Position numbers and translations under genes: made by a program
In this document: in pieces, positions 1-14,273 of the stretch
Layout of the letters: each line of letters begins with the position of its first letter
How positions within the stretch are numbered: the first letter of the stretch is position 1
Source: a virus
Taxonomy: Duplodnaviria > Heunggongvirae > Uroviricota > Caudoviricetes
Length of the DNA: 64,000 bases
Strand: one strand, 5' to 3'
IMG/VR virus record: IMGVR_UViG_3300012007_000007
Span: 99,434-163,433 of that record
The notes under the pieces: model-generated
Database searches by the model: none
Told to the model about the DNA's origin: nothing
What the model saw: the letters and a program-made list of their open reading frames with translations, nothing else

Positions 1-4
1 CCAG

Positions 5-586: not shown

Positions 587-626
587 CGGAGGCCCGGGCA
601 GCGGCGTCCCCGCGGGACTTCCCGTC

Positions 627-668: not shown

Positions 669-714
669 TGCCTATCGGTGTATATGGCGAAATTGCCATA
701 AAAGGAGGTATGCT

Positions 715-1062
715 ATGGGATTGCGTGCGACTGTAATAAAGAAGTATGAGGTTTCCTACGGGGACACCCAGGGATTCAACTACGATTCGGAGGTCTTGGC
801 TGACCTGCTGAACCATTTCTGCGATTCGGCATATTGTGGCGGGGGCTATCACTCCACAAATGCCATCTGGGAAGTCCCCAGGGGGGAAATTCAGGGAATG
901 GTGGACAGGATTTCCTCTATGACCGACACCGAATTTGCCGAGGCTTGCGAGAAGGCCACGGGAACAGACAACTACACCCGGGAGGAAGTCCTGGACGTGT
1001 TCCGGGGCTGGCTTGCGGAAACGCCCGCCGACAGCCCGTATGTGCGATTCGGCTGGCTGTAA
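715..1062 (+). CDS. hypothetical early protein (115 aa)
   Basis: in-frame ATG (residue 73 of ORF 499..1062) 8 nt after AAAGGAGG. Confidence 0.6.
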   Translation: MGLRATVIKKYEVSYGDTQGFNYDSEVLADLLNHFCDSAYCGGGYHSTNAIWEVPRGEIQGMVDRISSMTDTEFAEACEKATGTDNYTREEVLDVFRGWLAETPADSPYVRFGWL

Positions 1063-1163
1063 GAGGCCTCCTGGCCTGGCGGAAGCTCCCGGTGAATGCC
1101 GGGGGCGTTCCTTTTTGCCCGGGTGGCGGGGCGACGGAGCCCTTCCCGGCGGGAACTCCCGGT

Positions 1164-1205
1164 GTCTATCGGGTTCGGGATGGGATTCCCGGGAGGGCGG
1201 GGCCG
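1164..1205 (+). promoter_or_regulatory. class-I element
   Basis: GTCTATCGGGttcGGGATGGGATTCCCGGGAGGGCGGGG. Confidence 0.55.
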
Positions 1206-1238
1206 TAGCCATTTTTTCTTTGGAAAAAGGAGGCCATT

Positions 1239-1637
1239 ATGCTGATAAGGATAGACCAGGATGTATTCAATGCACTGAAGGCAAAGCTTGACGGCAGCCG
1301 TGCGGCCGATGAATACGTGCAGGCGAAGGCTGCGGAGAGCGGCGAGGTCATCGGCTTGCCAATCCGAGCTGCCGAGGTTGCCGAAGCTGAAGGGCTAGTC
1401 GGGCATATCAAGACCACCGGGGAAATAGACCCGTGGCACGGCCCGAGAGACCCATACATTGTCGTGACCTACGACAGCGGGGACACCGAGCTGGACGCCG
1501 AGAGGTGCGAAACCCTGGCGGACGCCGTATGCTATATGGTGAACACGGTAAAGGCCGGGGGTTGTTCCTATGCGGAACTGTGCGTGGACAACAACACGGG
1601 CGAAGCCATATATGACGTTATGAAGTGGAGTAATTGA
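1239..1637 (+). CDS. hypothetical early protein (132 aa)
   Basis: ORF track; AAAAAGGAGG RBS. Confidence 0.6.
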   Translation: MLIRIDQDVFNALKAKLDGSRAADEYVQAKAAESGEVIGLPIRAAEVAEAEGLVGHIKTTGEIDPWHGPRDPYIVVTYDSGDTELDAERCETLADAVCYMVNTVKAGGCSYAELCVDNNTGEAIYDVMKWSN

Positions 1638-1653
1638 CCCTGCCGAGCACCTC

Positions 1654-1690
1654 CCGGGAATTCCCCGGGAGGCCTTCTTGTTTCCTGGCG
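1654..1690 (+). terminator. intrinsic terminator
   Basis: CCTCCCGGGAATTCCCCGGGAGG hairpin + ccttcttgtttcc. Confidence 0.55.
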
Positions 1691-1742
1691 GCCTGAAGCT
1701 CCAGATGGCGGCTTCCTGAGTCTTCCGCCGGGAGCTCCCGGT

Positions 1743-1775
1743 ATCTATCGGGTGCCGGATGGGATGCCCGGGAGG
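1743..1775 (+). promoter_or_regulatory. class-I element (truncated, palindrome missing)
   Basis: ATCTATCGGGtgccGGATGGGATGCCCGGGAGG with no gene directly downstream. Confidence 0.4.
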
Positions 1776-1807
1776 AGAGTTGTAAACAAACTTTTACAGA
1801 AATGGTA

Positions 1808-1836
1808 TTGACAATTACACAATTTTTATCTATATT
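1808..1836 (+). promoter_or_regulatory. near-consensus sigma70 promoter (TTGACA-17-TATATT)
   Basis: exact -35 TTGACA, 17-nt AT-rich spacer, TATATT; AT island in GC-rich DNA. Confidence 0.55.
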
Positions 1837-1937
1837 TATAAATACCTTCCCGGAGTCTCCCGTCAAATCCAATCCCGATACTTGGGAACTCCCGGGAAGA
1901 ATTCTTTACCGCGTATCGCCGCCCGTGTGGTATGCCA

Positions 1938-1975
1938 TCTATCGGGTCGGGGATGGGATAAGCGGCGGTTCGGGG
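1938..1975 (+). promoter_or_regulatory. class-I element (degenerate)
   Basis: TCTATCGGGtcgGGGATGGGATAAGCGGCGG. Confidence 0.45.
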
Positions 1976-2013
1976 GTATAGACCATATTATGGGTGAACT
2001 TATGGAGGTATCT

Positions 2014-2253
2014 ATGATAAAGGTTGCAGTAAGGGATTGGTTCGGGACTCCGTATCTCGTAAAGCTGAATTCCGTCCCCTCGGTCGGGGAGGACTTCCAG
2101 GTCGGGGGGAAGGGTGACAAGCACGTCCGTGGAATCGTTTCCCGCGTGGAGAGGACGGTTACGCGGGAGGGCGACTCCATCGAGGTGTACCTGAACGACG
2201 ACCGGAACGAGGTCAACGACGAATCCGACTTCAGGAGCGTGGATTGGTGGTAG
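2014..2253 (+). CDS. hypothetical early protein (79 aa)
   Basis: ATG 6 nt after GGAGGT (residue 45 of ORF 1882..2253). Confidence 0.55.
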   Translation: MIKVAVRDWFGTPYLVKLNSVPSVGEDFQVGGKGDKHVRGIVSRVERTVTREGDSIEVYLNDDRNEVNDESDFRSVDWW

Positions 2254-2301
2254 TCTAACGGTAACAGGATGGGTTTCCCGGGTGTTCCCGGGAGTTTCCC
2301 A
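2254..2301 (+). promoter_or_regulatory. class-I element (degenerate)
   Basis: TCTAACGGtaacaGGATGGGTTTCCCGGGtgTTCCCGGGAGTTTCCCA. Confidence 0.5.
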
Positions 2302-2332
2302 TTTTTCAATGGCAACAATAGGAGGTTACGAT

Positions 2333-2626
2333 ATGCCGGAAGCTGGATTTTCCACCACGTTCCGTATGGACTTCACGATAGCAGACCGCTTCGGGGTATC
2401 CGCCGTTAAGGATACCTTCAACCGGGCGTTTGCCGAATGGAAGGGCGACTACAGGTACCTGACCGACCTGGTGATTACCCTGAACCACAAGATTTGGGAG
2501 CACTACGAGGCTGGCCACGAGTCCCTGGCAGCTTTGTACGACAGCCTCTGGAAGCAGGCTGACGGATACGCCTGCGAGCACTTGACGGGTGACGAGCTGG
2601 CCTACTTCTACCGGGAAACCGACTAG
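2333..2626 (+). CDS. hypothetical early protein (97 aa)
   Basis: ATG after ATAGGAGGTTACGAT; residue 18 of ORF 2282..2626. Confidence 0.55.
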   Translation: MPEAGFSTTFRMDFTIADRFGVSAVKDTFNRAFAEWKGDYRYLTDLVITLNHKIWEHYEAGHESLAALYDSLWKQADGYACEHLTGDELAYFYRETD

Positions 2627-2720
2627 CTGTATGGCGATGGATTGCGGAGGGCCTCCCGGGAACCACCGGGAGGCCCTGCCGTATCTGCCGGGAGGCGGCT
2701 GCGGAAACCGGGCCCGAGTC

Positions 2721-2750
2721 CCAGCGGCCCGCTGGAAATTTTTTTATTCG
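2721..2750 (+). terminator. intrinsic terminator
   Basis: CCAGCGGCCCGCTGG hairpin + aaatttttttatt. Confidence 0.5.
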
Positions 2751-2795
2751 TCTATCGGGCCGGGGATGGGATGCCCGGGAGAACCGGGGGTATGC
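2751..2795 (+). promoter_or_regulatory. class-I element
   Basis: TCTATCGGGccgGGGATGGGATGCCCGGGAGAACCGGGGG. Confidence 0.55.
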
Positions 2796-2866
2796 CATAG
2801 GTTGAGTGTAAACGGGCGGCCCGTCTGGCCCTGGATAGGCGGAGATAGTTACCTAGGGGGTAAGCT

Positions 2867-3067
2867 ATGATTAGGACACTGATTGTCACCATCCTGGTGG
2901 CCTTTGTCGCAGGTCTCGTTGCCGAGACCGCAGTGGTTGCCGTCGGCCTGGCCGGTGGCGTTGTTCCCGCCATTCACACGGGTGTTGAACTCGTGGTATG
3001 CTGGGCGGTCTGCCTGGCCGGGTTCGTGGGGAGCGTGCTCCACACGGTGCTCGGCAGGCGGTTCTGA
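2867..3067 (+). CDS. small hydrophobic membrane protein (66 aa)
   Basis: ORF track; two predicted TM helices; GGGGGTAAGCT upstream. Confidence 0.5.
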   Translation: MIRTLIVTILVAFVAGLVAETAVVAVGLAGGVVPAIHTGVELVVCWAVCLAGFVGSVLHTVLGRRF

Positions 3068-3221
3068 CGCAGTAGCGTTTACCCGTGCCACAGGGAGCCC
3101 CGGTCACCCCGACCGGGGCTTTCCCGTATCCTCCCTGGGATACGCCTGGGAACTCCCTGGGAACTCCCGGGAGCAGTCCCAGATGGCGTCAGGCGAAGCC
3201 TTCCGGCCGGAACTCCCGGTG

Positions 3222-3268
3222 TCTAACGGGACGGGGATGGGATGCCCGGGAGAACCGGGAGTGTCCTA
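3222..3268 (+). promoter_or_regulatory. class-I element
   Basis: TCTAACGGGacgGGGATGGGATGCCCGGGAGAACCGGGAGtgTCCtATATT. Confidence 0.55.
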
Positions 3269-3295
3269 TATTGTAGGTAGCTTATGGAGGCTATT

Positions 3296-3694
3296 ATGGA
3301 AATGGTGGAAATGTGCGGTATGTTCAATGTCGTGGCTACAACAATGCCCGTTGACGATTTTTCAATGGATGACCCGGAAATCAGGTTCGTCCAGGCCGGG
3401 TGCGAGGTCATCCTGAAAGACCTCGGGAGTCTCGGCCCGAAGGCCGTTGTCACCGAGCAGGGCCCGAACGAATGCGACTTCGGCGAATGGGATTGCGACT
3501 TCCGCGTGGATGGGGACACAGATACCATCTACCGCCTCGTGGTAGTCCATACGGACGATACCGTAGGCATAGGTATCCAGGCCACCGTGAGCGAATGGGA
3601 TACCTGCTCCACCATTCATTCCCTGGGTGACGTGACGGAACTGGATGCCTCCCTCCCGGTGGTGAAGGCCGAGGCTGTGAAGGCGAGCCTCTAG
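3296..3694 (+). CDS. hypothetical early protein (132 aa)
   Basis: ATG 8 nt after conserved cTATGGAGG leader. Confidence 0.6.
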   Translation: MEMVEMCGMFNVVATTMPVDDFSMDDPEIRFVQAGCEVILKDLGSLGPKAVVTEQGPNECDFGEWDCDFRVDGDTDTIYRLVVVHTDDTVGIGIQATVSEWDTCSTIHSLGDVTELDASLPVVKAEAVKASL

Positions 3695-3711
3695 CCCGGG
3701 AGGCCCTCCCG

Positions 3712-3740
3712 GGGAACTCCCGGGAGTTTTCTTTTTCTAA
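3712..3740 (+). terminator. intrinsic terminator
   Basis: CTCCCGGGGAACTCCCGGGAG + ttttctttttct. Confidence 0.55.
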
Positions 3741-3785
3741 CGGGACGGGGATGGGATGCCCGGGAGAACCGGGAGTGTCCCATAT
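3736..3785 (+). promoter_or_regulatory. class-I element
   Basis: near-identical to copy at 3222 (tandem paralogous cassettes). Confidence 0.55.
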
Positions 3786-3809
3786 TGTAGGTAGCTTATG
3801 GAGGCTAAT

Positions 3810-4340
3810 ATGGCTATGAAATACCATTACAACGTTCACGTCATTCCTACTACCCCGGGGACTGACGCAACAATCTGGGTCGGGGTCACCATCAGCGAGA
3901 AGTATGTGTCCGATGACAGCTTCGTCACCCGGGACAGCGTGCTGTGGAACGCGGCCATCGCCCGTGCCAATGAGCTGTGCCCGGACATTGGCGAATGCGT
4001 CTGCGAGGAATGGAACGGCGGCGAGCCGGTGTATCCCTACACCCGCATTACCGAGGAACAGCGACTTCTCGCCCAGCGTCTGTGGAACGAATACAACGCA
4101 ACACTTGCCAAGAACGGGATGAAGCTCCACTATGACGTGGCTAACGGTGGCTTTTTCGTGGCAAGCACTGACCTTGAGAACGGTATGCTAAAGGACGGAA
4201 AGGGTGCTACTCCCGATGACCTTGATGCCGATGAGCTGGAACGTGTCGTAAACGATGGGGGTTTTGATGACGGTGCTGTAAATAACCCCCCTTGGTTCGT
4301 GGATTTCTACTCTTACACCCTAAAGGTGAAGAGGGCATAA
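3810..4340 (+). CDS. hypothetical early protein (176 aa)
   Basis: ATG after cTATGGAGGctaat; ORF track. Confidence 0.6.
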   Translation: MAMKYHYNVHVIPTTPGTDATIWVGVTISEKYVSDDSFVTRDSVLWNAAIARANELCPDIGECVCEEWNGGEPVYPYTRITEEQRLLAQRLWNEYNATLAKNGMKLHYDVANGGFFVASTDLENGMLKDGKGATPDDLDADELERVVNDGGFDDGAVNNPPWFVDFYSYTLKVKRA

Positions 4341-4348
4341 TTCAAGAA

Positions 4349-4385
4349 CCTCCCGGGGAACTCCCCGGGAATTTTTTCCTTTCCC
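4349..4385 (+). terminator. intrinsic terminator
   Basis: ACCTCCCGGGGAACTCCCCGGGAAT + tttttcctttcc. Confidence 0.55.
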
Positions 4386-4421
4386 GGGAGCTCCCGGGGC
4401 TGTTCCGGCCGGACTCCGGTG

Positions 4422-4468
4422 TCTATCGGAGCCGGGATGGGATGCCCGGGAGAACCGGGGGTCACCCA
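4422..4468 (+). promoter_or_regulatory. class-I element
   Basis: GTCTATCGGagccGGGATGGGATGCCCGGGAGAACCGGGGG. Confidence 0.55.
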
Positions 4469-4509
4469 GGAATATGACAGGACAACAACATTAACCTATG
4501 GAGGAAAGT

Positions 4510-4824
4510 ATGAAGAAGTTTTTTATCGCCCTTGCCGTAGCCGGGATTCTCGTCGGCTGTGGTGAACAGACCAAGGATGCGGCCAAGGAAACGGCACGCA
4601 GTGCGGGAAAGCTGGCCGTCACCGCGGTATCCGAGGCAGCCAGGGGCGTTGCCGATGTCACCGCTGACGCCGCGAAGGCGACCGCTGACGCCGCGAAGGC
4701 GAAAGCCGCCGAGCTGAAGGACTCCGCTGTCGCCAAGGCAACCGAAGCGAAGGACTCCGCTGTCGCCAAGGCCAAGGAAACGGTAAAGGCCGTGGCCGAC
4801 TCCGTTTCCAAGGGGGTGAAGTAA
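4510..4824 (+). CDS. putative lipoprotein with Ala/Lys-rich tandem repeats (104 aa)
   Basis: signal peptide + LVGC lipobox; repeated AKATADAAKAKAAELKDSAVAKA units. Confidence 0.55.
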   Translation: MKKFFIALAVAGILVGCGEQTKDAAKETARSAGKLAVTAVSEAARGVADVTADAAKATADAAKAKAAELKDSAVAKATEAKDSAVAKAKETVKAVADSVSKGVK

Positions 4825-4851
4825 TATGGGACGTATCGGAGGATACCACGG

Positions 4852-5016
4852 ATGACCATTGAGCAGATTATGGAAGCCCAGCGTCTCCTGAGACGCTCCC
4901 GGAAGTCCCTCCCGGCACTGAAGGGAAAGGTAAAGGAAGCCTGCCTCGCGTGGGCGGAAACCTCCCGCAAGTACGGGGTGATTCCGCTGAGTTCAACGTT
5001 CAGCCTCGGGAGGTAG
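4852..5016 (+). CDS. small basic protein (54 aa)
   Basis: ORF below track threshold; GGAGGA RBS 9 nt upstream of ATG. Confidence 0.3.
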   Translation: MTIEQIMEAQRLLRRSRKSLPALKGKVKEACLAWAETSRKYGVIPLSSTFSLGR

Positions 5017-5167
5017 GATATGCCGATTGAATGCTACAAGAGACCTTTCTAAAACAAAATTTTACAATATCCGCACTTGACTGCGGATATTTTTTTATCT
5101 ATCCGGTTTTGTGGAGTTGTCACTGGCAGCCTGGCGGAATTCCCGGGGAAGGCTGTTATGCCCGTTA

Positions 5168-5215
5168 TCTAACGGGTCCTGGATGGGAGAACCGGGAGAA
5201 CCGGGATACCCGCAT
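5168..5215 (+). promoter_or_regulatory. class-I element (degenerate)
   Basis: TCTAACGGGtcctGGATGGGAGAACCGGGAGAACCGGGATACCC. Confidence 0.45.
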
Positions 5216-5257
5216 TGGGACGATACACAGATACACATAAAAATGGAGGCAAATACT

Positions 5258-5614
5258 ATGGCACAGAACAACGAAATTTCCACCCTCGCAAAGGTCACCA
5301 TCGGACGCTACGATGTCTCCGAGGGGAGCAGCGGCCGCTTCTGCATTGAAGTGGAGTTCCCCGGCGAACCTTCCCTCGTCGTGACCGAGGAAGACCCCGT
5401 GGCTTCCCTGGAATCCCCGGACGATACCTTCGTCACCCCCGACCTCTGCGACGAGGTGTACGACGTCCTGGAAAAGTCCGGGCTGGCAACCTACCTGGGC
5501 GGGGAATACTGCGACCCGAACCAGAACGGGGGCTTCTCGTGTGCGGTGTACCGGGTGAAGGCGGGAGAGGGCACTTTCATCGTCCGCACGGACTACGGCG
5601 TAACCGCCGAATAG
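5258..5614 (+). CDS. hypothetical early protein (118 aa)
   Basis: ATG after aaaATGGAGGcaaatact. Confidence 0.6.
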   Translation: MAQNNEISTLAKVTIGRYDVSEGSSGRFCIEVEFPGEPSLVVTEEDPVASLESPDDTFVTPDLCDEVYDVLEKSGLATYLGGEYCDPNQNGGFSCAVYRVKAGEGTFIVRTDYGVTAE

Positions 5615-5630
5615 CCATTCGGCAACTCCA

Positions 5631-5668
5631 GGGCCTCCCGGGAAATCCCGGGAGGCTTTCTGTTTCCG
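5631..5668 (+). terminator. intrinsic terminator
   Basis: GGCCTCCCGGGAAATCCCGGGAGGC + tttctgtttcc. Confidence 0.55.
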
Positions 5669-5696
5669 GCCCGGGTTCTTTCGGGAGTTCCCGGTG

Positions 5697-5745
5697 TCTA
5701 TCGGGGCGGGGATGGGTTGTCCGGGAATACCGGGCATCCTTCATT
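5697..5745 (+). promoter_or_regulatory. class-I element
   Basis: TCTATCGGGgcgGGGATGGGTTGTCCGGGAATACCGGGCATCC. Confidence 0.5.
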
Positions 5746-5773
5746 GTATAACTGCGAACCATAGGAGGACATT

Positions 5774-6343
5774 ATGCAAGAATTCCGTGTAACTGCTACC
5801 ATTGACACCCGCAGGGCGACCGGAGACCGCACCACACAAATTCTCGGTGTCGTAGTCACGCTCGACTACCCGCAATCCGGCCACCACTTGACCGTCCATC
5901 TTTCCGGGGTGAGGCTGGAGAATTTCCACGCCTGCAACCCCTCGGTGAAGCTTCCGCCCGACATCATCTTTGAAGGCGAAGGCATACACGAGGCCATCTG
6001 CACTGCCATTCTGGAAGAGGTGGTGAAGGCTGCCAATTGGAGCATCCCGGAGGTTGACGTGGTGAACGAGGCACGTGCCCGCATGAAGGGGCTGATTGAC
6101 TTCCTTGCCGCCAACGGTCAGAGCCTCGGCTTTGACGATGACAGCGACACGCTGTTCATCGCCCCGAAGGGACTGCAATGGGATAACCAGGGTAAGGGCG
6201 GAAATGATTTAATCCCGGTAACGGCTGAGGAACTGGAATACCGTTCTGAACACTGCGACATCTGCTCGGAAAAGATTTGCTTCTGCCGTCCGAATGACGG
6301 GAGCGAATTCCTTGAGAAGAACGGCCTCCGCAAGGCAAGATAA
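5774..6343 (+). CDS. hypothetical early protein (189 aa)
   Basis: ORF track; ATAGGAGGACATT RBS. Confidence 0.6.
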   Translation: MQEFRVTATIDTRRATGDRTTQILGVVVTLDYPQSGHHLTVHLSGVRLENFHACNPSVKLPPDIIFEGEGIHEAICTAILEEVVKAANWSIPEVDVVNEARARMKGLIDFLAANGQSLGFDDDSDTLFIAPKGLQWDNQGKGGNDLIPVTAEELEYRSEHCDICSEKICFCRPNDGSEFLEKNGLRKAR

Positions 6344-6365
6344 TCTTTAACCCTCCCCACGGAGA

Positions 6366-6400
6366 CTCCCGGGAAACTCCCGGGGGTCTTTCTTTTTTCC
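6366..6400 (+). terminator. intrinsic terminator
   Basis: CTCCCGGGAAACTCCCGGGGG + tctttcttttttcc. Confidence 0.55.
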
Positions 6401-6461
6401 TCCCGGACTGTACCTGCCGACTCTGAAGCTTCTGGCGGCCGCCCGCGGGAACCTCCCGGTG

Positions 6462-6510
6462 TCTAACGGGTTACGGATGGGATGCCCGGGTTTCCCGGGA
6501 GTGGACCATA
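6462..6510 (+). promoter_or_regulatory. class-I element
   Basis: TCTAACGGGttacGGATGGGATGCCCGGGTTTCCCGGGAG. Confidence 0.55.
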
Positions 6511-6552
6511 TGCGAAGCAGGAATTCAACTTGAACCTATGGAGGATTGAACT

Positions 6553-7014
6553 ATGAGTATGGGATATGGTGCTAACTTTGCCGAAGTGGTAACTAAGGAA
6601 AGTCTGGCGAAGGTTATTGGCGACCGTGGCTGCCGCAGGGTAAACGCTTTCATTAAGGCGTTCAAGAACTATGAACTGGATGAAGGCGAATACGGCTGTC
6701 GGGATGAGCTGTGCGATGCCATTATGGGTATTGGCTGTACTCCGGCAGGTATTGACACTGACCGGAAGGAGTTTAAGGCACTGAAGGCAAAGTGGGATGC
6801 TATCGCCACGAAGTTTAAGGAAGCGACAAAGATTGCCCTCTGGTGCAACTGGCATTCCATTGATGAGGATGGCGACCGATACGATGAGGTGGACGGACTC
6901 TACTTTGATGTCGGCCTGAAGTCCATCTGGCAGCCAACGAAGGCTTACCGGGAGGCGATGGCAAAGTTCGGAAAGAACTTCATCACTCGTAAGTTTTTCG
7001 TAACATTTGGCTAA
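6553..7014 (+). CDS. hypothetical early protein (153 aa)
   Basis: ORF track; cTATGGAGGattgaact leader. Confidence 0.6.
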   Translation: MSMGYGANFAEVVTKESLAKVIGDRGCRRVNAFIKAFKNYELDEGEYGCRDELCDAIMGIGCTPAGIDTDRKEFKALKAKWDAIATKFKEATKIALWCNWHSIDEDGDRYDEVDGLYFDVGLKSIWQPTKAYREAMAKFGKNFITRKFFVTFG

Positions 7015-7023
7015 AAAAGTAAG

Positions 7024-7062
7024 GAAATCCCTCCCGCTACCCTCCGGGAGGGATTTTTTGTA
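7024..7062 (+). terminator. intrinsic terminator
   Basis: AATCCCTCCCGCTACCCTCCGGGAGGGATT + ttttgtat. Confidence 0.55.
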
Positions 7063-7099
7063 TAAACTGCGGAAAACAACCAGGAACATAGGTTACGAT

Positions 7100-7666
7100 A
7101 TGATGGGCGACATTATCCAGTTCCCGAACGCATACCAGGGGAACAACCAATACGCAATGCAGAAACGGCAGGAACTTGCCTGGCTGAGGGAACGCCTGGA
7201 CAACATCAAGCAGAAGCTGGCAATGGCGAATATTTCCGGGACAAGGGATGACATCTACGACCTGGAACTCCAGGCCCGCAACCTCCTGCGACGCAGGCGA
7301 TTTCTGCTGGGCGGGGGAGACCCTGCGGACAATTCCGTCCAGGAAGATAACCATTACCCGGACGAGCTCGTCATGCTGGACGATATGCTTGAGCTGAAGA
7401 TGGAGGAATACGAGGAATGCGAGGGGGACGAGAATACCAACCCCGAGAAGGCGAGGATTGGCCGGGAATACGAGGAGATTGACGGCCTCAAGAGCTCAAT
7501 GAAGAAGGCTTGGTTTGCGGACGAGGAGTTTTCCGATGCCGACCTTGACAAATACTACAAGCTCCTGGCGAAGTACGTCGTACCTCCCGGGTTCAATAAC
7601 GGGAACAGCGAAGGCCTCACCAACGAAGAATTCATCGCCAAGTACGGCAAGGACCTCCAGGACTAG
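7100..7666 (+). CDS. hypothetical acidic protein (188 aa), no class-I element of its own
   Basis: first ATG after terminator (residue 32 of ORF 7007..7666); weak RBS AGGTTACGAT. Confidence 0.5.
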   Translation: MMGDIIQFPNAYQGNNQYAMQKRQELAWLRERLDNIKQKLAMANISGTRDDIYDLELQARNLLRRRRFLLGGGDPADNSVQEDNHYPDELVMLDDMLELKMEEYEECEGDENTNPEKARIGREYEEIDGLKSSMKKAWFADEEFSDADLDKYYKLLAKYVVPPGFNNGNSEGLTNEEFIAKYGKDLQD

Positions 7667-7674
7667 CCCGGCTC

Positions 7675-7735
7675 TCTAACGGGTTACGGATGGCTTCCCC
7701 GGGATTTCCCGGGGATTTCCCATATATTGGGCGAG
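7675..7735 (+). promoter_or_regulatory. class-I element (variant with duplicated palindrome)
   Basis: TCTAACGGGttacGGATGGCTTCCCCGGGATTTCCCGGGGATTTCCCATATATT. Confidence 0.5.
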
Positions 7736-7792
7736 GGCTTTCCCAGGGCCCTACCGGGGGTTTCCCGGGAAACCGTAATATGGAGGTTAGAT

Positions 7793-8113
7793 ATGTTCGT
7801 TCTTATGTTCTCGAGTTCCGACCCGAACGAGATTGACTGCCAGCGGCCGAGCGTAATCGCCCACGGGGATACCGTGGATGACCTCATCCAGGCACTGACC
7901 GACGAGGTGGCGTCCGAGGCCTGCATCCACGACGGTGCGAAGCTGTACGCCTGGGGCTACAGTGCCGGGGACGAGATTGACGCGAATGACATCGCTGGGC
8001 TCTGCGACGCGGTGTCCGAGGGAGTCACCCACATCACACTGAAGATTCCCGAAGGCCCGTTCAACGCGGAATACTGCAACAACTGGGCCATTGACGAGAT
8101 TGACCTGGACTAG
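7793..8113 (+). CDS. hypothetical early protein (106 aa)
   Basis: ATG after aATATGGAGGttagat. Confidence 0.6.
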   Translation: MFVLMFSSSDPNEIDCQRPSVIAHGDTVDDLIQALTDEVASEACIHDGAKLYAWGYSAGDEIDANDIAGLCDAVSEGVTHITLKIPEGPFNAEYCNNWAIDEIDLD

Positions 8114-8261
8114 GCAAGACTTCTGCATAGCAACCTCCTAACACCTCCCGTAGCGATACGGGAGGTTCGTCGTATGGAGGAGGATTTTTTATTATATTTC
8201 CTGAAGCTTCCCCGCCGAGCAGTTCAGGAATTCCCCGGAGGCTTCCCGGTGTCTAACGGGA

Positions 8262-8300
8262 CGGGGATGGGATGCCCGGGAACTCCACGAGATAACCACC
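8262..8300 (+). promoter_or_regulatory. class-I element (palindrome half lost)
   Basis: TCTAACGGGacgGGGATGGGATGCCCGGGAACTCCACG. Confidence 0.5.
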
Positions 8301-8334
8301 TGACAGACAACGGATAATTAACCGAGGAGGCAAA

Positions 8335-8715
8335 ATGATTACCATTCCCAAGAACACATTACCGCAGGAACTCGCAGAGAAGGATTCCCGTTGCGATGAA
8401 AAGGTTGTCCAGCGTATCGTGGACGCATTCCTGCATGGCGGTGCGTGGAAGACTTTCCACCCGTTTTCCGACGGCCCGTACCGCAGGGTGAACAACTTTG
8501 TCGCCAAGGACTACTTCTGGGATGACTCGGACGACGGAAAGTGCGTGAAGTTCACCAACACAGAACTCGACCGTGCGGTAGAACTGCTGAAGGATGCGGG
8601 CTACTTCTTCTACCGCAAGTATGAATACGGCACTTGGCTCGCCTACTTCTGCTCCCCGCGTCCCTCGTGCGAGAACGCAGTGAGGGTGGACATCGTGGAG
8701 CACTTCAACCCGTAA
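8335..8715 (+). CDS. hypothetical early protein (126 aa)
   Basis: ORF track; GAGGAGG RBS. Confidence 0.6.
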   Translation: MITIPKNTLPQELAEKDSRCDEKVVQRIVDAFLHGGAWKTFHPFSDGPYRRVNNFVAKDYFWDDSDDGKCVKFTNTELDRAVELLKDAGYFFYRKYEYGTWLAYFCSPRPSCENAVRVDIVEHFNP

Positions 8716-8760
8716 CCCAACTACCTGTCCACCGTATCCCGCATCCCACCGCCCGTTATG

Positions 8761-8808
8761 TCTAACGGGCTACGGATGGGATGCCCGGGAGAACCGGGAA
8801 TCCTTCAT
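8761..8808 (+). promoter_or_regulatory. class-I element
   Basis: TCTAACGGGctacGGATGGGATGCCCGGGAGAACCGGGAATCC. Confidence 0.55.
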
Positions 8809-8895
8809 TGATACTATGCAACAAAAAATGTAGATTTACGCTATAAACCGTCATATAGCGAGACCATCAAAAGAACCTTTAATCGGAGAACAGAT

Positions 8896-9912
8896 ATGCC
8901 CAACGCAAACCTCAACAAGGCCAAGGCCGCCAAGAACGATGAATTTTATACCGTAATCGCGGACATTGAACGCGAAATGAACGCCTACTACGACCGCGAC
9001 CCGGATGTTTTCCGTGGCAAGACCATCCTCTGCCCGTGCGACGACCCGACTTGGAGCAACTTCACCAAGCACTTTACGCAGAACTTCGTCCGCTACGGCC
9101 TGAAGAAGCTCATCTGCACCGGCTACCACAAGGGCGGCAAGGGCATGAAGTATGTCCTTGAAGGCGACACGGACGGCAACGGCAAGGTCGAAGCAGCCGA
9201 CATCGTTGCTACCGAAATGGAAGGTGACGGCGATTTCCGTAGCGAGGAAGTCCAGGAACTGCTCGGAGAAGTGGACTTCATCATCACGAATCCCCCCTTC
9301 TCGCTCTTCCGCGAATTTATCGCTTGGATTATGGAACACGGGAAAAAGTTTGCAATTATCGGAACACAGAACGCCGTTTCTTGTTCCGAAGTGTTCAGTC
9401 TCATTAAGAGCAACCAAGTGTGGCTCGGTGCTACCGGGAACAACACCGACATGGTGTTCCGCGTTCCCGAAGGTGCCGAAATCAAGCCTTCCGACCGTGC
9501 CAAGGCAGAACGCCTGGGCTACAAGGGCAGCTATACCCGTCTCGGGAACAGCTGCTGGTTTACCAACATCGAACACGGCAAGCGTCATGAGTTCCTTGAC
9601 CTCTGCACCAAGGCACAGCTGAAGAAGCGCGGGGTGGAGTTCCCGAAGTATGACAACTACAGGGCCATCGAAGTGTCCAAGGGGGCATACATCCCCAAGG
9701 ACTACAAGGGGGTGATGGGCGTGCCCGTCACATGGCTGGACAAGTATAACCCGGAGCAGTTTGAAATTGTGGGCCTTGACGAAGCCCACGGCACCGGGAA
9801 CTCCAACGGGTTGTGGACGGGCGGCAACAAGAAGGCAACCATCAATGGAGAAGAAAAGTACGCCCGCCTCTTCATCAGGCACAAGCCCGCCACCGAAGAG
9901 GCCGACGCATAG
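8896..9912 (+). CDS. DNA N6-adenine (amino) methyltransferase, NPPF motif IV (338 aa)
   Basis: VDFIITNPPFSLFREF catalytic motif; paralog of CDS 12150..13115 (about 55-60% identity over the N-terminal 60 aa). Confidence 0.75.
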   Translation: MPNANLNKAKAAKNDEFYTVIADIEREMNAYYDRDPDVFRGKTILCPCDDPTWSNFTKHFTQNFVRYGLKKLICTGYHKGGKGMKYVLEGDTDGNGKVEAADIVATEMEGDGDFRSEEVQELLGEVDFIITNPPFSLFREFIAWIMEHGKKFAIIGTQNAVSCSEVFSLIKSNQVWLGATGNNTDMVFRVPEGAEIKPSDRAKAERLGYKGSYTRLGNSCWFTNIEHGKRHEFLDLCTKAQLKKRGVEFPKYDNYRAIEVSKGAYIPKDYKGVMGVPVTWLDKYNPEQFEIVGLDEAHGTGNSNGLWTGGNKKATINGEEKYARLFIRHKPATEEADA

Positions 9913-9986
9913 GAATCACGGAAAATTTTCTTAATTTTCCAAAACTATCACATAGAAGGACTATCAAACGGAAAGGAGACCCGACG

Positions 9987-11237
9987 ATGGAACCGACAAA
10001 ACTTTTTGAAATTTTTGAAGAAGTGGCCCACGCAGAACAGCGCCCGGGCGAAATGGTGTCCCGCTACGCCACAGTCAAAATCCGCGACCTCGTGGACGGG
10101 GCCATCTTCGATGCAGCCGAAAACAAGGGCCTCTATGCCCTTGACGGCCACATCATCGTTCAACCCAAATATCAGCGTTTCTACATCTACGGGGACGGCA
10201 AGCGCGATGTCAAGGTCATTGACTCCATCCTCAAGGGCCTCCCCATCGGCATGATTAGCCTCTATCTCCCCGGCGACCTCGCCCGTGACGGCAAGCCGAT
10301 GGCCGAAGTTTTGGATGGTCAACAGCGCCTCACCACAATCATCCGCTTCTGCACGGAGAAGTTCTCCGTGGATATTGACGGCAATCCGTTCAATTTCTAC
10401 GCCCTCCCGGAAGAAATCAAGGCCAAGATTCTTGACACGGAAATCCCGGTGAGCATCTGCGCCGGGGGCGAAAAGATGCGTAACGATTGGTTCAAGACCA
10501 TCAATATGCAGGGTGTCGCCCTCACGGACATGGAAATCCTCAACTGCGTCTATTCCGGCGAACAGGTGGAAGCCCTCAAGGAAAAGTTCTCCCATGTCAC
10601 CCCTTACCTTTCCAATGTTGCCCTGCAATACATCAAGGGCGACCCGATGCGCCAGGAAATCGAGGAAACCGCTATCAAGATGGTCTGCCCCGATGTGGAA
10701 GCCTACCTTGCCGAACACCGCCACGATGCCGATGTCTCCAAGGTGGAAGCCAAGTTCCACGCCGTCATTGACTGGGTGGACAGCATCTTCCCGGAATACT
10801 ACAAGGAAATGAAGGGATTGGAATGGGGTCGCCTCTATGACGAATACCACGAAAAATTCTTCAATTCCGAAGAATTGGGAAAGATTGTGGCCGACCTCAT
10901 GGCGGACGAGCATGTGACCGCCAAGAAGGGCGCATTTGAATACGCCTTGCAGAAGGCATCCGGGGCTGACCCCGACCTCTCCCTGCTCCATATCCGTCTG
11001 TTCGAGGAATCAACCAAGCGCACGGTATTCTCCCGCCAGACCCAAGAAGCCAAGGAAAAGGGCGAATCCAACTGCCCGATGTGCGTATTGGAGAACGGTG
11101 CTAACCGTGCCAAGCTCTACGGCATCAAGGAAATGGATGCCGACCACGCCTCCGCATGGTCGAAGGGTGGCGCTACGGACATTTCCAATTGCGTGATGCT
11201 TTGTGCCCATCACAACCGAATGAAGGGAAACCGCTAA
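9987..11237 (+). CDS. DUF262 (ParB-like nuclease N-domain) + C-terminal HNH endonuclease, GmrSD-like architecture (416 aa)
   Basis: DGQQRLTT motif; C-terminal CPMC...DHASAWSKGG...NCVMLCAHHN HNH motif; AAAGGAGA RBS. Confidence 0.7.
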   Translation: MEPTKLFEIFEEVAHAEQRPGEMVSRYATVKIRDLVDGAIFDAAENKGLYALDGHIIVQPKYQRFYIYGDGKRDVKVIDSILKGLPIGMISLYLPGDLARDGKPMAEVLDGQQRLTTIIRFCTEKFSVDIDGNPFNFYALPEEIKAKILDTEIPVSICAGGEKMRNDWFKTINMQGVALTDMEILNCVYSGEQVEALKEKFSHVTPYLSNVALQYIKGDPMRQEIEETAIKMVCPDVEAYLAEHRHDADVSKVEAKFHAVIDWVDSIFPEYYKEMKGLEWGRLYDEYHEKFFNSEELGKIVADLMADEHVTAKKGAFEYALQKASGADPDLSLLHIRLFEESTKRTVFSRQTQEAKEKGESNCPMCVLENGANRAKLYGIKEMDADHASAWSKGGATDISNCVMLCAHHNRMKGNR

Positions 11238-11285
11238 CATCAAATTGGGCTTCCTCAACAAGTAACAGCCAATGCCTCCACAGAG

Positions 11286-11322
11286 AACCTCCCGGGAAAT
11301 CCCGGGAGGCTTTCGTTTTCCC
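11286..11322 (+). terminator. intrinsic terminator
   Basis: GAACCTCCCGGGAAATCCCGGGAGGC + tttcgttttcc. Confidence 0.55.
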
Positions 11323-11373
11323 CTGAAGCTTCCAGACGACTTCCGACACTGAGCCCGCGGGCATCGCCCGTCC

Positions 11374-11420
11374 TCTAACGGGACGGGGATGGGATGCCCG
11401 GGAACTCCCGGGGTTCACCA
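11374..11420 (+). promoter_or_regulatory. class-I element
   Basis: TCTAACGGGacgGGGATGGGATGCCCGGGAACTCCCGGGG. Confidence 0.55.
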
Positions 11421-11451
11421 TCAGTCCAATACGCTTATGGAGGAAAAGACT

Positions 11452-12009
11452 ATGGCACACGAAACTATCCCCACCGATTCCTATGACGAGAAGGGCGAAT
11501 TTGTCATCCTCGACAGTATGGCCAGCCCGGACTACGACCGTATAAAGGAGGACTGCGAGGCCAACGACTGGGACATCCCGGAGGTTGACTCGGAGGAATA
11601 CTGGGAACACTGGCACTGTATTCTGGATAGCGACCTGGAGCTTTTCCGGGATTCCTTCGCAGACCTCGGCCTCGTGGTGATGCGCGGAAAGTCTGGGCTT
11701 TGGTACGGCGACCGCGACTGCGGCAACGTGGCCAGGGTGGAGAACGGCGACCAGTTCCTGGCCATCGCCATGCACGGGGACGGGGTGGACGACTGCCGGG
11801 TCTACTTCACGAAGGAACAGGGGCTTTGTTCCGACGGATACCACCACGACGGGACGAACTCCTACGCCTACCGCCAGCTCACCGAGAAGGGAAAGGAACT
11901 CTATACCGCGTGGGACAACTATGAAATTGAGATGAGTGAACGGGAACTCCACGAGAAGCTGTGGGAACCCGAATACTCCACGAAGATTGACTGGTTCCTC
12001 GACACATAA
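11452..12009 (+). CDS. hypothetical protein (185 aa)
   Basis: ATG after cTTATGGAGGaaaagact. Confidence 0.6.
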   Translation: MAHETIPTDSYDEKGEFVILDSMASPDYDRIKEDCEANDWDIPEVDSEEYWEHWHCILDSDLELFRDSFADLGLVVMRGKSGLWYGDRDCGNVARVENGDQFLAIAMHGDGVDDCRVYFTKEQGLCSDGYHHDGTNSYAYRQLTEKGKELYTAWDNYEIEMSERELHEKLWEPEYSTKIDWFLDT

Positions 12010-12062
12010 ATTTTCCGATTGCCTCCCAGCTCCTCCCGGGAAACCCCCGGGAGGTTGCCTGT

Positions 12063-12095
12063 ATCTAACGGGGCCTGGATGGCTACCCCGGCCCG
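12063..12095 (+). promoter_or_regulatory. class-I element (heavily degenerate)
   Basis: ATCTAACGGGgcctGGATGGCTACCCCGGCCC. Confidence 0.35.
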
Positions 12096-12124
12096 TTGAC
12101 CCGGAAATTATTTTTTATTATAAT
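12096..12124 (+). promoter_or_regulatory. consensus sigma70 promoter (TTGACC-17-TATAAT)
   Basis: -35 TTGACC, exact 17-nt spacer, perfect TATAAT; 26 nt upstream of methyltransferase ATG. Confidence 0.6.
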
Positions 12125-12149
12125 TTTTTCATAAAAAAGGAAACCCCGA

Positions 12150-13115
12150 ATGCCCAACGCAAACCTCAACCGGGCGAAATCAGCCAAGAACGACGAATTC
12201 TACACGCTTCCAGCCGATGTTTCCCTGGAAGTATCGGCATACCTCCGCAGGAACCCCGACCTTTTCCGGGGAAAGTCCGTGCTCTGCCCCTGCGACGACC
12301 CGGACGACAGCGCGTTCGCGAGCCACTTCGCGGAACACCTGGGCGAATACGGGATAACCCGCCTGGTCTGCTCCTGCTACAACCGGGAATCCCACGGGAA
12401 GGTACGGGTCATAGAGAACGGTACTACCGTAGACTCCGAGCTCGAGGGCGACGGGGACTTCCGGGGGGAGGAGGTGGGACGGCTCATCGACGGCGCGGAC
12501 TTCGTGGTGACCAACCCCCCGTTCAGCCTGTTCAGGGACATCGTGGCCGTCCTGACGGCGAAAAATAAATTCTTTTCCCTGATAGGGAACCTCAACGCGA
12601 TAGGGTACAGCGAGATTTTCCCCCTTATAATGGAGAACCGCCTCTGGACGGGGGCCACCCACTTCAACACCGGGATGTACTTCCGCGTTCCCGGGGACTA
12701 CGAGTACGCACCCACCTACAAGTTCGACCGGGAGCGGGACGGCGTGAAGGTGATGCGCGTCCCGGCGACCTGCTGGTTCACCAACATAGACTTCGACTCA
12801 AGGCACGACACCCTGGAGCTCTCCTCCCGGGAAGCCCTGGAGAAGAAGGGGGTGTCGTTCCCGGTATATGACGACTACGACGCGATAGAGGTGTCGAAGG
12901 CGGTCAACATCCCGGGCGACTTCCCGGGGATAATGGGAGTTCCCATATCCTGGCTGGGCAAGTACAACCCGGAACAGTTCGAGATAGTGGGCATAGCCAA
13001 CCACGGCAAGGACAGCGAGTACGACCTGTTCGCCCCGAGCGTCCACGGGGAGACCGTGTACAAGCGGCTGCTCATCAGGCACCGGCATGCGCCCCAGGAT
13101 TCCCCCGTCCTCTAA
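12150..13115 (+). CDS. DNA N6-adenine methyltransferase paralog (321 aa)
   Basis: FVVTNPPFSLFRDI motif; N-terminus near-identical to CDS 8896. Confidence 0.75.
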   Translation: MPNANLNRAKSAKNDEFYTLPADVSLEVSAYLRRNPDLFRGKSVLCPCDDPDDSAFASHFAEHLGEYGITRLVCSCYNRESHGKVRVIENGTTVDSELEGDGDFRGEEVGRLIDGADFVVTNPPFSLFRDIVAVLTAKNKFFSLIGNLNAIGYSEIFPLIMENRLWTGATHFNTGMYFRVPGDYEYAPTYKFDRERDGVKVMRVPATCWFTNIDFDSRHDTLELSSREALEKKGVSFPVYDDYDAIEVSKAVNIPGDFPGIMGVPISWLGKYNPEQFEIVGIANHGKDSEYDLFAPSVHGETVYKRLLIRHRHAPQDSPVL

Positions 13116-13158
13116 CGGGTACGGGATGGGATGCCCGGGAACTCCCGGGGATAACCAC
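13111..13158 (+). promoter_or_regulatory. class-I element
   Basis: TCTAACGGGtacGGGATGGGATGCCCGGGAACTCCCGGGG; overlaps the methyltransferase stop codon. Confidence 0.55.
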
Positions 13159-13184
13159 ACCAATGTAAAAATGGAGGACATTAA

Positions 13185-13403
13185 ATGCTAGCATTTCCCG
13201 AATCCAACCCGAAGCCGGTAATTTCCCGCGACGGGGGGAACGTCCCCTGCCGTCGCCCGGACAAGACGGGTACGAAGCCGCCCTGCATCAACTGCGGCCG
13301 CCCGACCTACCGCTACATCGGGTCCTACCCGGTATGTTCCTACTGCACGAAGCTCGTAAAGCTGGACAGGTACGGCCAGCCGATAAAGGAGGCGAAACAA
13401 TGA
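13185..13403 (+). CDS. zinc-ribbon protein (72 aa)
   Basis: CINCGRPTYRYIGSYPVCSYCTK (4 Cys); aaaATGGAGGacattaa leader. Confidence 0.55.
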   Translation: MLAFPESNPKPVISRDGGNVPCRRPDKTGTKPPCINCGRPTYRYIGSYPVCSYCTKLVKLDRYGQPIKEAKQ

Positions 13404-13579
13404 CAGCCAAGAAGTTCTGCTACGAAGTACACGCCGACACTCCCGCAGGGAGGAAGGTGACATTCCCGGTAGCCGATACCGACGAGGAGGCCGTGGACAC
13501 GGCGCTCGCCGTGTTCCCGAGGGGCTCCCGGGTGACCAAGGTGGTAAACCAGGATACCGGGAAGGTCTGGGTACCCTAA
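13400..13579 (+). CDS. hypothetical protein (59 aa), translationally coupled (ATGA overlap)
   Basis: AAGGAGG RBS inside the upstream gene's end; in-frame ATG of ORF 13334..13579. Confidence 0.5.
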   Translation: MTAKKFCYEVHADTPAGRKVTFPVADTDEEAVDTALAVFPRGSRVTKVVNQDTGKVWVP

Positions 13580-13622
13580 CGGGGCCGGGATGGGATGCCC
13601 GGGAGTTCCCGGGAATTTCCCA
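13575..13622 (+). promoter_or_regulatory. class-I element
   Basis: CCTAACGGGgccGGGATGGGATGCCCGGGAGTTCCCGGGAATTTCCCA. Confidence 0.55.
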
Positions 13623-13653
13623 CGTCATAACCAGTCAAACAATGGAGGAAACA

Positions 13654-13929
13654 ATGAGAAAGACAATCTACATCGTCCACACCGCGCAGTTCTACGAATC
13701 TTCCGGCGAACTGATAACCTTCGCCCGGGCATTCCCGACACTGAAGGCTGCGGCGAAGTTCGTCGTGGCTGACTACAACGCACAGTGCCGTATCTTCGGG
13801 GACCCCAACACCCTCTCCGATACCGCCTGGAAGGGAATCTCTCAAACCCGTCAAATCGAATCTCCCGGTGAAATCTGGTCTGGCTGGCTCATCTGGAACA
13901 TCACGAAGCAGGTGCTGTCTATCGGGTAA
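13654..13929 (+). CDS. hypothetical protein (91 aa)
   Basis: ATG after cAATGGAGGaaaca. Confidence 0.6.
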   Translation: MRKTIYIVHTAQFYESSGELITFARAFPTLKAAAKFVVADYNAQCRIFGDPNTLSDTAWKGISQTRQIESPGEIWSGWLIWNITKQVLSIG

Positions 13930-13965
13930 CGGATGGGATGCCCGGGAACTCCCGGGGTTTCCCAT
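13918..13965 (+). promoter_or_regulatory. class-I element (overlaps the upstream gene's 3' end)
   Basis: TCTATCGGGtaacGGATGGGATGCCCGGGAACTCCCGGGGTTTCCCA. Confidence 0.55.
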
Positions 13966-13998
13966 TGGAACAACAGATAGCACAACAACGGAGGCAAT

Positions 13999-14247
13999 AT
14001 GTATATTCTCAACGTAGACGGAAACGCAGTATCTACCCACAGCACCCTGGAGGAGGCTTTCAAGGCACGCAACGACAAGGTGCGGGAAATCTGTCTCGAA
14101 CTGTACGACAACGACATCATCGACAAGTACGCCGTAGAGGACTGGTGCTTTGACCTCGGCAACAACAAGGATATGTCCTTCTGCATCGACGAGGGTTGCG
14201 GTTACACCATCGACATCGTGAAATCCAAGGACGAAAGAGTAGCATAG
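13999..14247 (+). CDS. hypothetical protein (82 aa)
   Basis: ORF track; ACGGAGGCAAT RBS. Confidence 0.6.
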   Translation: MYILNVDGNAVSTHSTLEEAFKARNDKVREICLELYDNDIIDKYAVEDWCFDLGNNKDMSFCIDEGCGYTIDIVKSKDERVA

Positions 14248-14273
14248 TCAGTTTTTAGTTAAATGGGGGAATA

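Follow-up and report, generated by a model that had tools for sequence, protein, structure and literature searches.

Two rare and conserved sigma70-type promoter motifs in a rumen phage-like genome, one before a methyltransferase gene and one before a hairpin

The 64-kb window analyzed here (the whole stretch of 64,000 nucleotides, positions 99,434 to 163,433 of the Caudoviricetes record IMGVR_UViG_3300012007_000007 in IMG/VR) contains two near-consensus -35/-10 motifs that are probably functional promoters of the sigma70/sigmaA type under purifying selection. Their reader is most likely the host housekeeping holoenzyme, acting without a phage factor. Site 1 (1808 to 1836, + strand) consists of TTGACA (1808 to 1813), a 17-nucleotide (nt) spacer and TATATT (1831 to 1836), and site 2 (12096 to 12124, + strand) consists of TTGACC (12096 to 12101), a 17-nt spacer and TATAAT (12119 to 12124). 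Scored as matches to the 12 positions of TTGACA plus TATAAT, each site reaches 11/12. The -35 hexamer matches at all six positions in site 1 and at five in site 2, and the -10 hexamer at five of six in site 1 and at all six in site 2, with the A at position 2 and the T at position 6 present in both. Both sites are intergenic and lie on the coding strand, and when both strands were scanned, they were the sole matches of at least 11/12 in the window. An earlier sequence-only reading of this DNA had given the same motif sequences, spacings and positions, and these are exact.

Sites of this quality are rare by chance in the left part of the window. Between positions 1 and 24600, two sites of at least 11/12 are observed, and the number expected is 0.09 in dinucleotide shuffles and 0.16 in 30-nt local shuffles (P = 0.007 to 0.017). 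At the threshold of at least 10/12 there is no enrichment in the same region (2 observed versus 1.6 to 2.5 expected), and over the whole window sites of at least 10/12 are enriched (14 observed versus 5.5 to 8.3 expected). Both sites fall in AT-rich islands, as had been claimed. With an island defined as a 30-nt window of ≤27% GC, 19 islands were found in positions 1 to 24600; the island at 1778 to 1854 holds site 1, and the one at 12094 to 12151 holds site 2.

The pattern in which these motifs are conserved is evidence that they are promoters. Suitable relatives were not found in the standard collections: a megablast search of positions 1 to 20000 against the phage collection gave no match, the core of the repeated class-I unit described below gave only four single, chance-level matches in IMG/VR, the sigma-factor open reading frame (ORF) of the window had no relative there, and the methyltransferase had only homologues of ≤50% identity, which are unusable for promoter comparison. 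Relatives were found instead by a search with the class-I pattern, which gave two JAEEGL01 contigs of one genome at 85 to 93% identity, and by protein look-ups, which gave further lineages from other rumen assemblies. Site 1 could thus be compared in five lineages (the window and four others) and site 2 in three sequence types (five sequences). At site 1, 12 of the 12 hexamer positions are invariant against a background of 68% (P about 0.009), and the spacer is 17 bp in all five lineages although 5 of its 17 bases vary. The site 1 cassette persists while the genes on either side of it differ between lineages. At site 2, all 12 hexamer positions are kept and 28 of the 29 positions of the core are invariant, the one substitution being in the spacer, whose length is fixed. 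The flanks of site 2 drift, with 20/34 positions invariant upstream and 13/25 in the leader, which also has insertions and deletions, and the conservation starts exactly at the 5' edge of TTGACC. Invariant hexamers at an invariant spacing, with spacer sequence that is free to change, argue for selection on a -35/-10 promoter.

The two sites are exceptions to the organization of the block in which they lie. In the left 24.5 kb of the window, small genes, most of them unknown, all point in one direction and form an array with 35 class-I units (83 to 24512, all on the + strand). The class-I unit is a GC-rich 46-nt element of the form tCTAnCGGG-N4-GGATGGGATGCCCGGGA-N3-CCgGG..ttccCA, and copies were collected with its 28-nt core, CTAWCGGG-N4-GGATGGGATGCCCGGG, allowing ≤3 mismatches. 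The units lie 71 to 135 nt (most of them 72 to 90 nt) upstream of a start codon that is served by a strong GGAGG ribosome-binding site, and many of them follow a hairpin and T-run terminator, often CCTCCCGGG..CCCGGGAGG. About nine further copies lie to the left of the window, as far as position 7339 of contig L092, and the array starts 2.5 kb left of the window. Its left boundary is marked by 900 nt of repeat-rich non-coding DNA (L092:6840-7740, about 2.1 to 3.0 kb to the left of the window), in which ATACCCCCC and GGTCTCCC repeats occur together with four variant copies of class-I and a core that is AT-rich; this region may be a genome end, an origin or an entry region.

The class-I unit is probably a phage-specific promoter module that acts as a sequence-level signal. 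RNAalifold analysis of 29 copies gave a weak fold without covariation, and the copies share fixed sequence blocks, as would be expected of a protein-binding or promoter module. An RNA structure, or a hairpin promoter of the N4 type supported by covariation, was therefore dropped as an explanation of class-I. A distant relative, contig L110 (ERZ28656914 WOLF17-1 scaffold_118, positions 1 to 20360), has a similar array of small genes with the sigma-54 consensus TTTGGCACGG-N3-TTGCA in the gaps. It contains 17 exact TGGCAC-N5-TTGC matches in 20 kb, which lie within the short intergenic gaps when taken as a set, not copy by copy, and a second contig, L080 from IMG/VR, contains seven. The sigma-54 consensus does not occur above chance in the window. 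Since the intergenic slot of L110 holds sigma-54-type promoters, the corresponding slot in the window is likely to be a promoter slot as well, and class-I a swappable promoter module. L110 also carries a gene for an S-AdoMet lyase.

Neither site 1 nor site 2 is a class-I unit, and each is joined to a class-I remnant whose 3' half has been swapped for AT-rich promoter sequence. Upstream of site 2, the remnant (12067 to 12095, + strand) directly adjoins the -35 hexamer. It was not recovered at ≤3 mismatches; in the alignment its core differs at five positions and the 3' half is absent. The L095 lineage, in which it is better preserved, retains GGGATGGGATGCC. The distance from the start of this remnant to the start codon is 83 nt, which is within the 72- to 90-nt norm, and site 2 fills the slot of the absent 3' half. 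The statement in the sequence-only reading that a host-type promoter here replaces a decayed class-I element is therefore borne out. Farther upstream, a CCTCCCGGG..CCCGGGAGG hairpin of family D7 (12032 to 12054, + strand) closes the preceding 185-amino-acid (aa) gene, and 26 of the 27 positions of the hairpin region (12028 to 12054) are invariant among the relatives.

Downstream of site 2, only 25 nt separate the end of the -10 hexamer from the ATG at 12150, which is preceded by an AAGGA ribosome-binding site. This ATG opens the co-oriented gene for methyltransferase 2 (12150 to 13115, + strand; 321 aa), a member of the EcoRI_methylase family that matches PF13651 over its full length (3.3e-93; 313 bits versus a cut-off of 26.4) and has the catalytic motif NPPF in its translation. 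The proposal that the second promoter fires directly into the second N6A-methyltransferase gene thus agrees with the arrangement of the locus. The GC content of the methyltransferase 2 gene matches that of the genome. The gene ends within the following class-I unit, which contains its stop codon, and no terminator separates the two, so transcripts from site 2 would run into the downstream genes. For the same reason, a model in which methyltransferase 2 is a moron with its own terminator was ruled out.

The other methyltransferase gene of the block, methyltransferase 1 (8896 to 9912, + strand), encodes a protein 48% identical to methyltransferase 2 and has an intact class-I unit (8762). The distance from that unit to the ATG is unusually long (134 nt), and the AT-rich leader contains a TTGATA-17-TAGATT match (8808 to 8836, 9/12). 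Between the two methyltransferase genes lies a gene for a GmrSD_N plus HNH protein that resembles type IV restriction enzymes (9987 to 11237, + strand), and this arrangement recurs in L095 and L099.

The architecture of site 1 is that of a strong promoter, with an UP-like tract, a perfect -35 hexamer, a 17-bp spacer and TATATT. The UP-element-like A/T tract, AAACAAACTTTTACAGAAATGG (1784 to 1805, + strand), occupies positions -59 to -38 of site 1. It agrees with 11 of the 14 specified positions of the UP-element consensus that was reportedly described by Estrem in 1998, and only 0.055% of window positions score as high. The stretch that encloses it (1776 to 1807) is invariant at 26 of 32 positions. 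Immediately upstream (1745 to 1775, + strand), a class-I unit is represented by its 5' part, with an intact core (0 mismatches to the 28-nt core); in the alignment the CCGGG..TTCCCA half has been lost.

Site 1 is followed not by a gene but by a conserved hairpin (1846 to 1899) and a T-rich tail, which together (1846 to 1912, + strand) form a terminator-like end for the predicted transcript. The 54-nt hairpin has a minimum free energy of -34.7 kcal/mol (z = -4.07) and is invariant at 49 of 54 positions among the relatives. The consensus fold reaches -24 kcal/mol with no stem pair broken, the one mismatch being a C-A pair in the apical loop of a single lineage. The window and the JAEEGL relative share the tail TTCTTT, and L107, L102 and L101 have a run of seven T, separated from the hairpin by 1 to 3 non-T bases. 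A simple terminator scan did not list this hairpin and tail, an Rfam search at permissive E-values found nothing credible around site 1, and the only target complementary to the hairpin loop within the window was the locus itself. After the hairpin come a degenerate class-I copy (1939 to 1985) and a 79-aa ORF (2014 to 2253; the pair spans 1939 to 2253, + strand). The relatives have a more complete version of this class-I copy, which is decayed in the window, and the JAEEGL relative has a different gene downstream of the site 1 cassette. Because a hairpin and T run, and then a separate class-I copy, stand between site 1 and the 79-aa ORF, site 1 would drive no gene directly; it most likely feeds a short RNA or a terminated leader of about 60 to 70 nt rather than an mRNA.

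A further interpretation of site 1, which is possible but doubtful, is that it is the entry to a control module with a very strong host-type promoter, in which the nascent hairpin would be a phage small RNA that acts in trans or else a read-through device of the put or Q type, in a phage family that re-times its genes by swapping promoter modules. If this were true, a put/Q-like device at site 1 would decide between a stop after about 65 nt and read-through of the many terminators of the block. More generally, promoter modules of three kinds (class-I, host-type -35/-10 and, in relatives, sigma-54-type) may be exchanged at a single fixed position ahead of the start codon.

The identity of the host bears on which polymerase reads these sites. 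The window derives from a sheep rumen metagenome (SRR948090 / PRJNA214227), and two weak hints point to a host that may be Fibrobacter, which shares its superphylum with Bacteroidota. The first hint is a contig from the metagenome-assembled genome Fibrobacter sp. UBA4375 (L091, DGRZ01000002.1), which shares 794 bp at 92% identity with positions 23806 to 24599. The shared stretch includes one class-I unit and adjoins genes for Cas1 and HipA, and the contig is either a hint of the host or a mis-binned or mosaic phage contig. The second hint is a weak Fib_succ_major match in a neighboring phage gene; a look-up of this Fib_succ_major-like protein matched phage relatives only, and not Fibrobacter chromosomal DNA.

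A host of this kind raises an alternative reading, which is that sites 1 and 2 are read by a Bacteroidota-like code (TTG near -33 and TAnnTTTG near -7), that their sigma70-like appearance is partly coincidental, and that the true host-type class of the window is a different motif, TGCTATATTTG. Ten copies of TGCTATATTTG were found between 31515 and 60450, one on the + strand (31515) and nine on the - strand (36663, 38614, 40585, 44728, 47581, 51362, 52084, 53071 and 60450), all upstream of co-oriented genes or of the tRNA cluster, and only 0.27 copies are expected. The motif does contain the Bacteroidota TAnnTTTG box, sites 1 and 2 can both be read as TTG-N20-TATAWTTT, and the sheep rumen sample, in which Fibrobacter is abundant, would suit such a host, as would the UBA4375 contig and the Fib_succ_major match. 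Nevertheless, several observations make this reading unlikely. The box (of the TTTG-N19-21-TAnnTTTG type) is not present at site 1 or site 2, which read TATATTTA and TATAATTT and both lack the final G of TAnnTTTG, and TAnnTTTG is not enriched in the window overall (23 observed versus 21.4 expected). What the relatives conserve is the full TTGACA or TTGACC, starting at the edge of the hexamer, and not TTG alone, a pattern that fits a -35 element of the TTGACA type better than a bare TTG. Nearly every gene in the window has a strong GGAGG ribosome-binding site, and strong GGAGG sites are unlike Bacteroidota. The contig labelled as Fibrobacter also carries an 11/12 TTGACA-17-TATATT site, which directly precedes an ATG and lies upstream of hipA.

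The TGCTATATTTG motif can also be accommodated within the sigma70-type reading, in that it is equally a perfect extended -10 element (TGnTATATT), mostly located after a T run. A T tract followed by TATAWT is found in 7 of the 10 TGCTATATTTG copies and at site 2, and at site 1 the T tract is offset by one base. The pattern T5-N2-TATWWT has seven matches, site 2 included, versus 0.05 expected. The TGCTATATTTG copies have a TG where sites 1 and 2 have a -35 hexamer. Such a trade-off between TG and -35 is typical of sigma70-type holoenzymes and suggests that one form of polymerase may read both kinds of site.

The window also encodes a sigma70-family sigma factor of its own (26558 to 27334, + strand; 258 aa; phrog_351, 1.6e-13), which renders plausible the phage-specific transcription layer that the sequence-only reading had supposed. 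A longer ORF at this position (25865 to 27334) was rejected as an artefact that runs through the intergenic AT-rich island. The protein matches the NCBIfam models for RpoS, SigK, RpoH and ECF factors at 1e-8 to 1e-5, all below cut-off, as are its Pfam matches. A profile of its family matches the structures of RpoS, SigA and RpoD at 1e-36 to 1e-22 in regions 2 and 4 (profile positions 24 to 236), and among 18 family members, 15 match Sigma70_r4 and 12 match Sigma70_r2. It is thus a divergent sigma factor with regions 2 and 4 present and region 3 shortened. Just downstream of the gene, the motif GTTTAACCGTGCTTCC occurs in four copies (27359, 27642, 28101 and 29584, + strand), three of them about 40 to 55 nt before start codons.

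In principle, this factor could be the reader of sites 1 and 2, in which case they would be middle-class or autoregulated promoters and not immediate-early ones. Its nearest matches are RpoS and SigA, and it has regions 2 and 4; RpoS-type factors read near-consensus -35/-10 promoters, and a site of the same build before the sigma gene (26442) would permit autoregulation. We nevertheless consider this reading very unlikely, given the residues at its recognition positions. In region 2.3/2.4, the aromatic and polar residues equivalent to W433, W434 and Q437 of sigma70 are replaced, and in region 4.2 the equivalents of R584, R586 and R588 are replaced as well (SSKECINRIRK versus TRERIRQIE). We take these sigma70 residues to be the ones that read the -10 and -35 elements, respectively. 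Based on these replacements, the phage factor would have a different promoter specificity and would read something other than TTGACA/TATAAT, plausibly class-I. Moreover, the site at 26442 must initially be read by something else, since no sigma factor can initiate its own synthesis.

The least likely explanation that we considered is that sites 1 and 2 are chance matches in AT-rich islands, conserved as the A/T tracts of a bidirectional terminator, as a DNA-unwinding element or origin, or as a protein-binding site: AT-rich islands do favor -10-like hexamers (local shuffles give an expectation about 70% above that of dinucleotide shuffles), TATATTTATAAATA at site 1 could serve as an A tract paired with the T run farther downstream, the entire site 1 cassette is conserved beyond the hexamers, and sites of at least 9/12 are not enriched, but two 11/12 sites that are both 17-bp spaced, intergenic and on the coding strand are improbable (P about 0.01), the GC-containing -35 hexamers, which are invariant beside changing bases, are not explained by AT-richness, the site 1 spacer is fixed in length and variable in sequence, and the UP-like tract is in exact register.

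Several points weigh against the conclusion that sites 1 and 2 are sigma70-type promoters read by the host holoenzyme. The sequence shows the motifs, their rarity, their geometry and their pattern of conservation, whereas the polymerase that reads them, the positions at which transcription starts, its strength and its timing are inferred. The host is only hinted at, no Fibrobacter promoter consensus was found in the literature, and, as described above, TGCTATATTTG also fits the Bacteroidota box and the phage has a sigma70-family factor that could in principle serve. Sites of at least 9/12 are not above chance in positions 1 to 20000 (12 versus 8.2). The informative relatives are fairly close, with 82 to 92% DNA identity around the sites, which gives the comparisons moderate statistical power, and the whole-alignment test for site 2 alone gives P about 0.06. 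L098 and L099, which are more distant relatives, are laid out differently and have no comparable promoter before the methyltransferase or sigma gene.

Weaker sites of a similar build are found elsewhere, the shared features being TTGAC(A/C/G), a spacer that ends in a T run and TAT(A/T)(A/T)T. The claim that sites 1 and 2 are the only canonical host-type promoters of the early block therefore holds at 11/12 but not for weaker candidates, which occur at 20754, at 8808 in the methyltransferase 1 leader and, just past the block, at 26442. The last of these, TTGACG-16-TATTTT (26442 to 26469, + strand), lies in an AT-rich island before the sigma-factor gene and is TTGACA-16-TATTTT in a relative. The site at 20754, TTGACC-16-TATTTT (20754 to 20781), is followed by a conserved non-coding stretch (about 20786 to 20876) and a strong terminator (20910 to 20941), the whole spanning 20754 to 20941 on the + strand. 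Its -35 hexamer is kept in L095 and lost in the JAEEGL relative. The non-coding stretch is nearly invariant across three lineages, more so than the neighboring genes, and the region from 20786 to 20941 is strongly structured (z = -5.97) and closes with a 13-bp terminator. An Rfam search around 20754 at permissive E-values found nothing credible, and we regard 20786 to 20941 as a candidate phage non-coding RNA. Beyond the window, 3 kb to its left (L092:6810), there is an additional 11/12 site, TGGACA-16-TATAAT. Outside the left block, good sites precede minus-strand genes at 38541 (TTGACT-17-TATATT) and at 36664 (TTGCTA-16-TATAAT). Like the strong GGAGG ribosome-binding sites, these sites close to genes indirectly favor a host that would use the TTGACA/TATAAT code. 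The operon downstream of the 38541 site includes a gene for a 176-aa protein (37026 to 37556, - strand) with a C-terminal helix-turn-helix that resembles HTH_23 and Sigma70_r4_2.

If sites 1 and 2 are host-read sigma70-type promoters, the transcription program would have the following form. The host holoenzyme would read both sites, while most genes of the left block would depend on class-I, which appears to be phage specific. At site 2, transcription would start about 18 nt before the methyltransferase 2 start codon and continue into the downstream genes. At site 1, an RNA of about 60 to 70 nt would fold into the conserved hairpin and end at the T run, either as a small RNA or as a terminated leader. 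The weaker third site at 26442, before the sigma gene, would make this a cascade that opens with the host polymerase and passes to transcription directed by the phage sigma factor. Within such a program, the immediate-early timing and the DNA-protection role suggested in the sequence-only reading are hypothetical.

The gene content of the window fits that of a jumbo phage. Proteins identical to those of the window are found on a 222,157-bp contig, and those of one relative on a 222,990-bp contig. The window contains 13 tRNA genes and genes for a CCA-adding enzyme, FtsK-, RadC- and SprT-like proteins and a DUF932 protein, with PHROG matches to a polynucleotide kinase and an RNA ligase, and it contains no structural genes. 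When the whole window was searched with Rfam at the gathering threshold, only tRNAs were found. At the edge of the window, a 767-aa ORF (765 aa from the first ATG; 61576 to 63879, - strand) has a C-terminal Cas12f1-like TNB domain (1.5e-8), and its product may be a TnpB or a compact Cas12-like nuclease; an exact look-up found no identical protein on record for the 765-aa form. Within the array, periodic repeats of 10 to 11 nt (CCCGGGTTGCTCCCGG-like) occupy 23026 to 23323 (+ strand), inside the ORF at 22961 to 23491.

Phages with a few host-type promoters are textbook biology, and the present case is a new example to be compared with T7, SPO1 and T4. As with A1, A2 and A3 of T7, a few strong host-type promoters stand beside a long conserved phage-specific promoter that is carried by most genes, and in T7 the host-driven early expression includes an anti-restriction function, Ocr. 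Unlike those of T7, the host-type sites here are internal to the block and not at the genome end, one would drive a methyltransferase and the other a short RNA, and the phage-specific layer seems to be sigma based; a single-subunit polymerase such as that of T7 was not found in the window. In this last respect the closer parallels are SPO1 (gp28 and gp33/34) and T4 (gp55), in which host sigmaA or sigma70 promoters are used first and a phage sigma70-family factor then redirects the host core polymerase. The host-type site before the phage sigma gene would correspond to this arrangement. In contrast to those systems, class-I, at 46 nt, is far longer than known sigma-dependent promoters, and the candidates for recognition by the phage sigma factor are class-I, TGCTATATTTG and GTTTAACCGTGCTTCC.

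The site 1 locus resembles PR'-tR' of lambda, which gives the 6S RNA, and put of HK022, in that these have a strong constitutive sigma70 promoter with a structured RNA and a terminator only tens of nucleotides away, for which site 1 has a predicted strong promoter, a hairpin and a terminator-like tail, upstream of a long co-oriented array that is interrupted by terminators. Unlike in lambda, the predicted transcript is about 60 to 70 nt rather than 194 nt, and no Q-like or N-like gene was identified, and read-through control at this locus is pure speculation. Site 2 and methyltransferase 2 resemble phage morons and orphan methyltransferase cassettes, in which a defense-related gene has its own host-type promoter, unlike its neighbors. 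They differ from morons in that methyltransferase 2 has no terminator and is not insulated, and in that its promoter replaced part of a resident promoter module and did not enter between genes.

At least three promoter codes seem to operate in the window, together with a sigma factor of its own, and sites 1 and 2 provide concrete, testable anchors for the transcription program of an uncultured, ~222-kb rumen phage-like genome. If they are read as proposed here, one of the two methyltransferase copies would have moved from a phage-specific to a host-type code, which would be a clean natural example of the re-wiring of an accessory gene.

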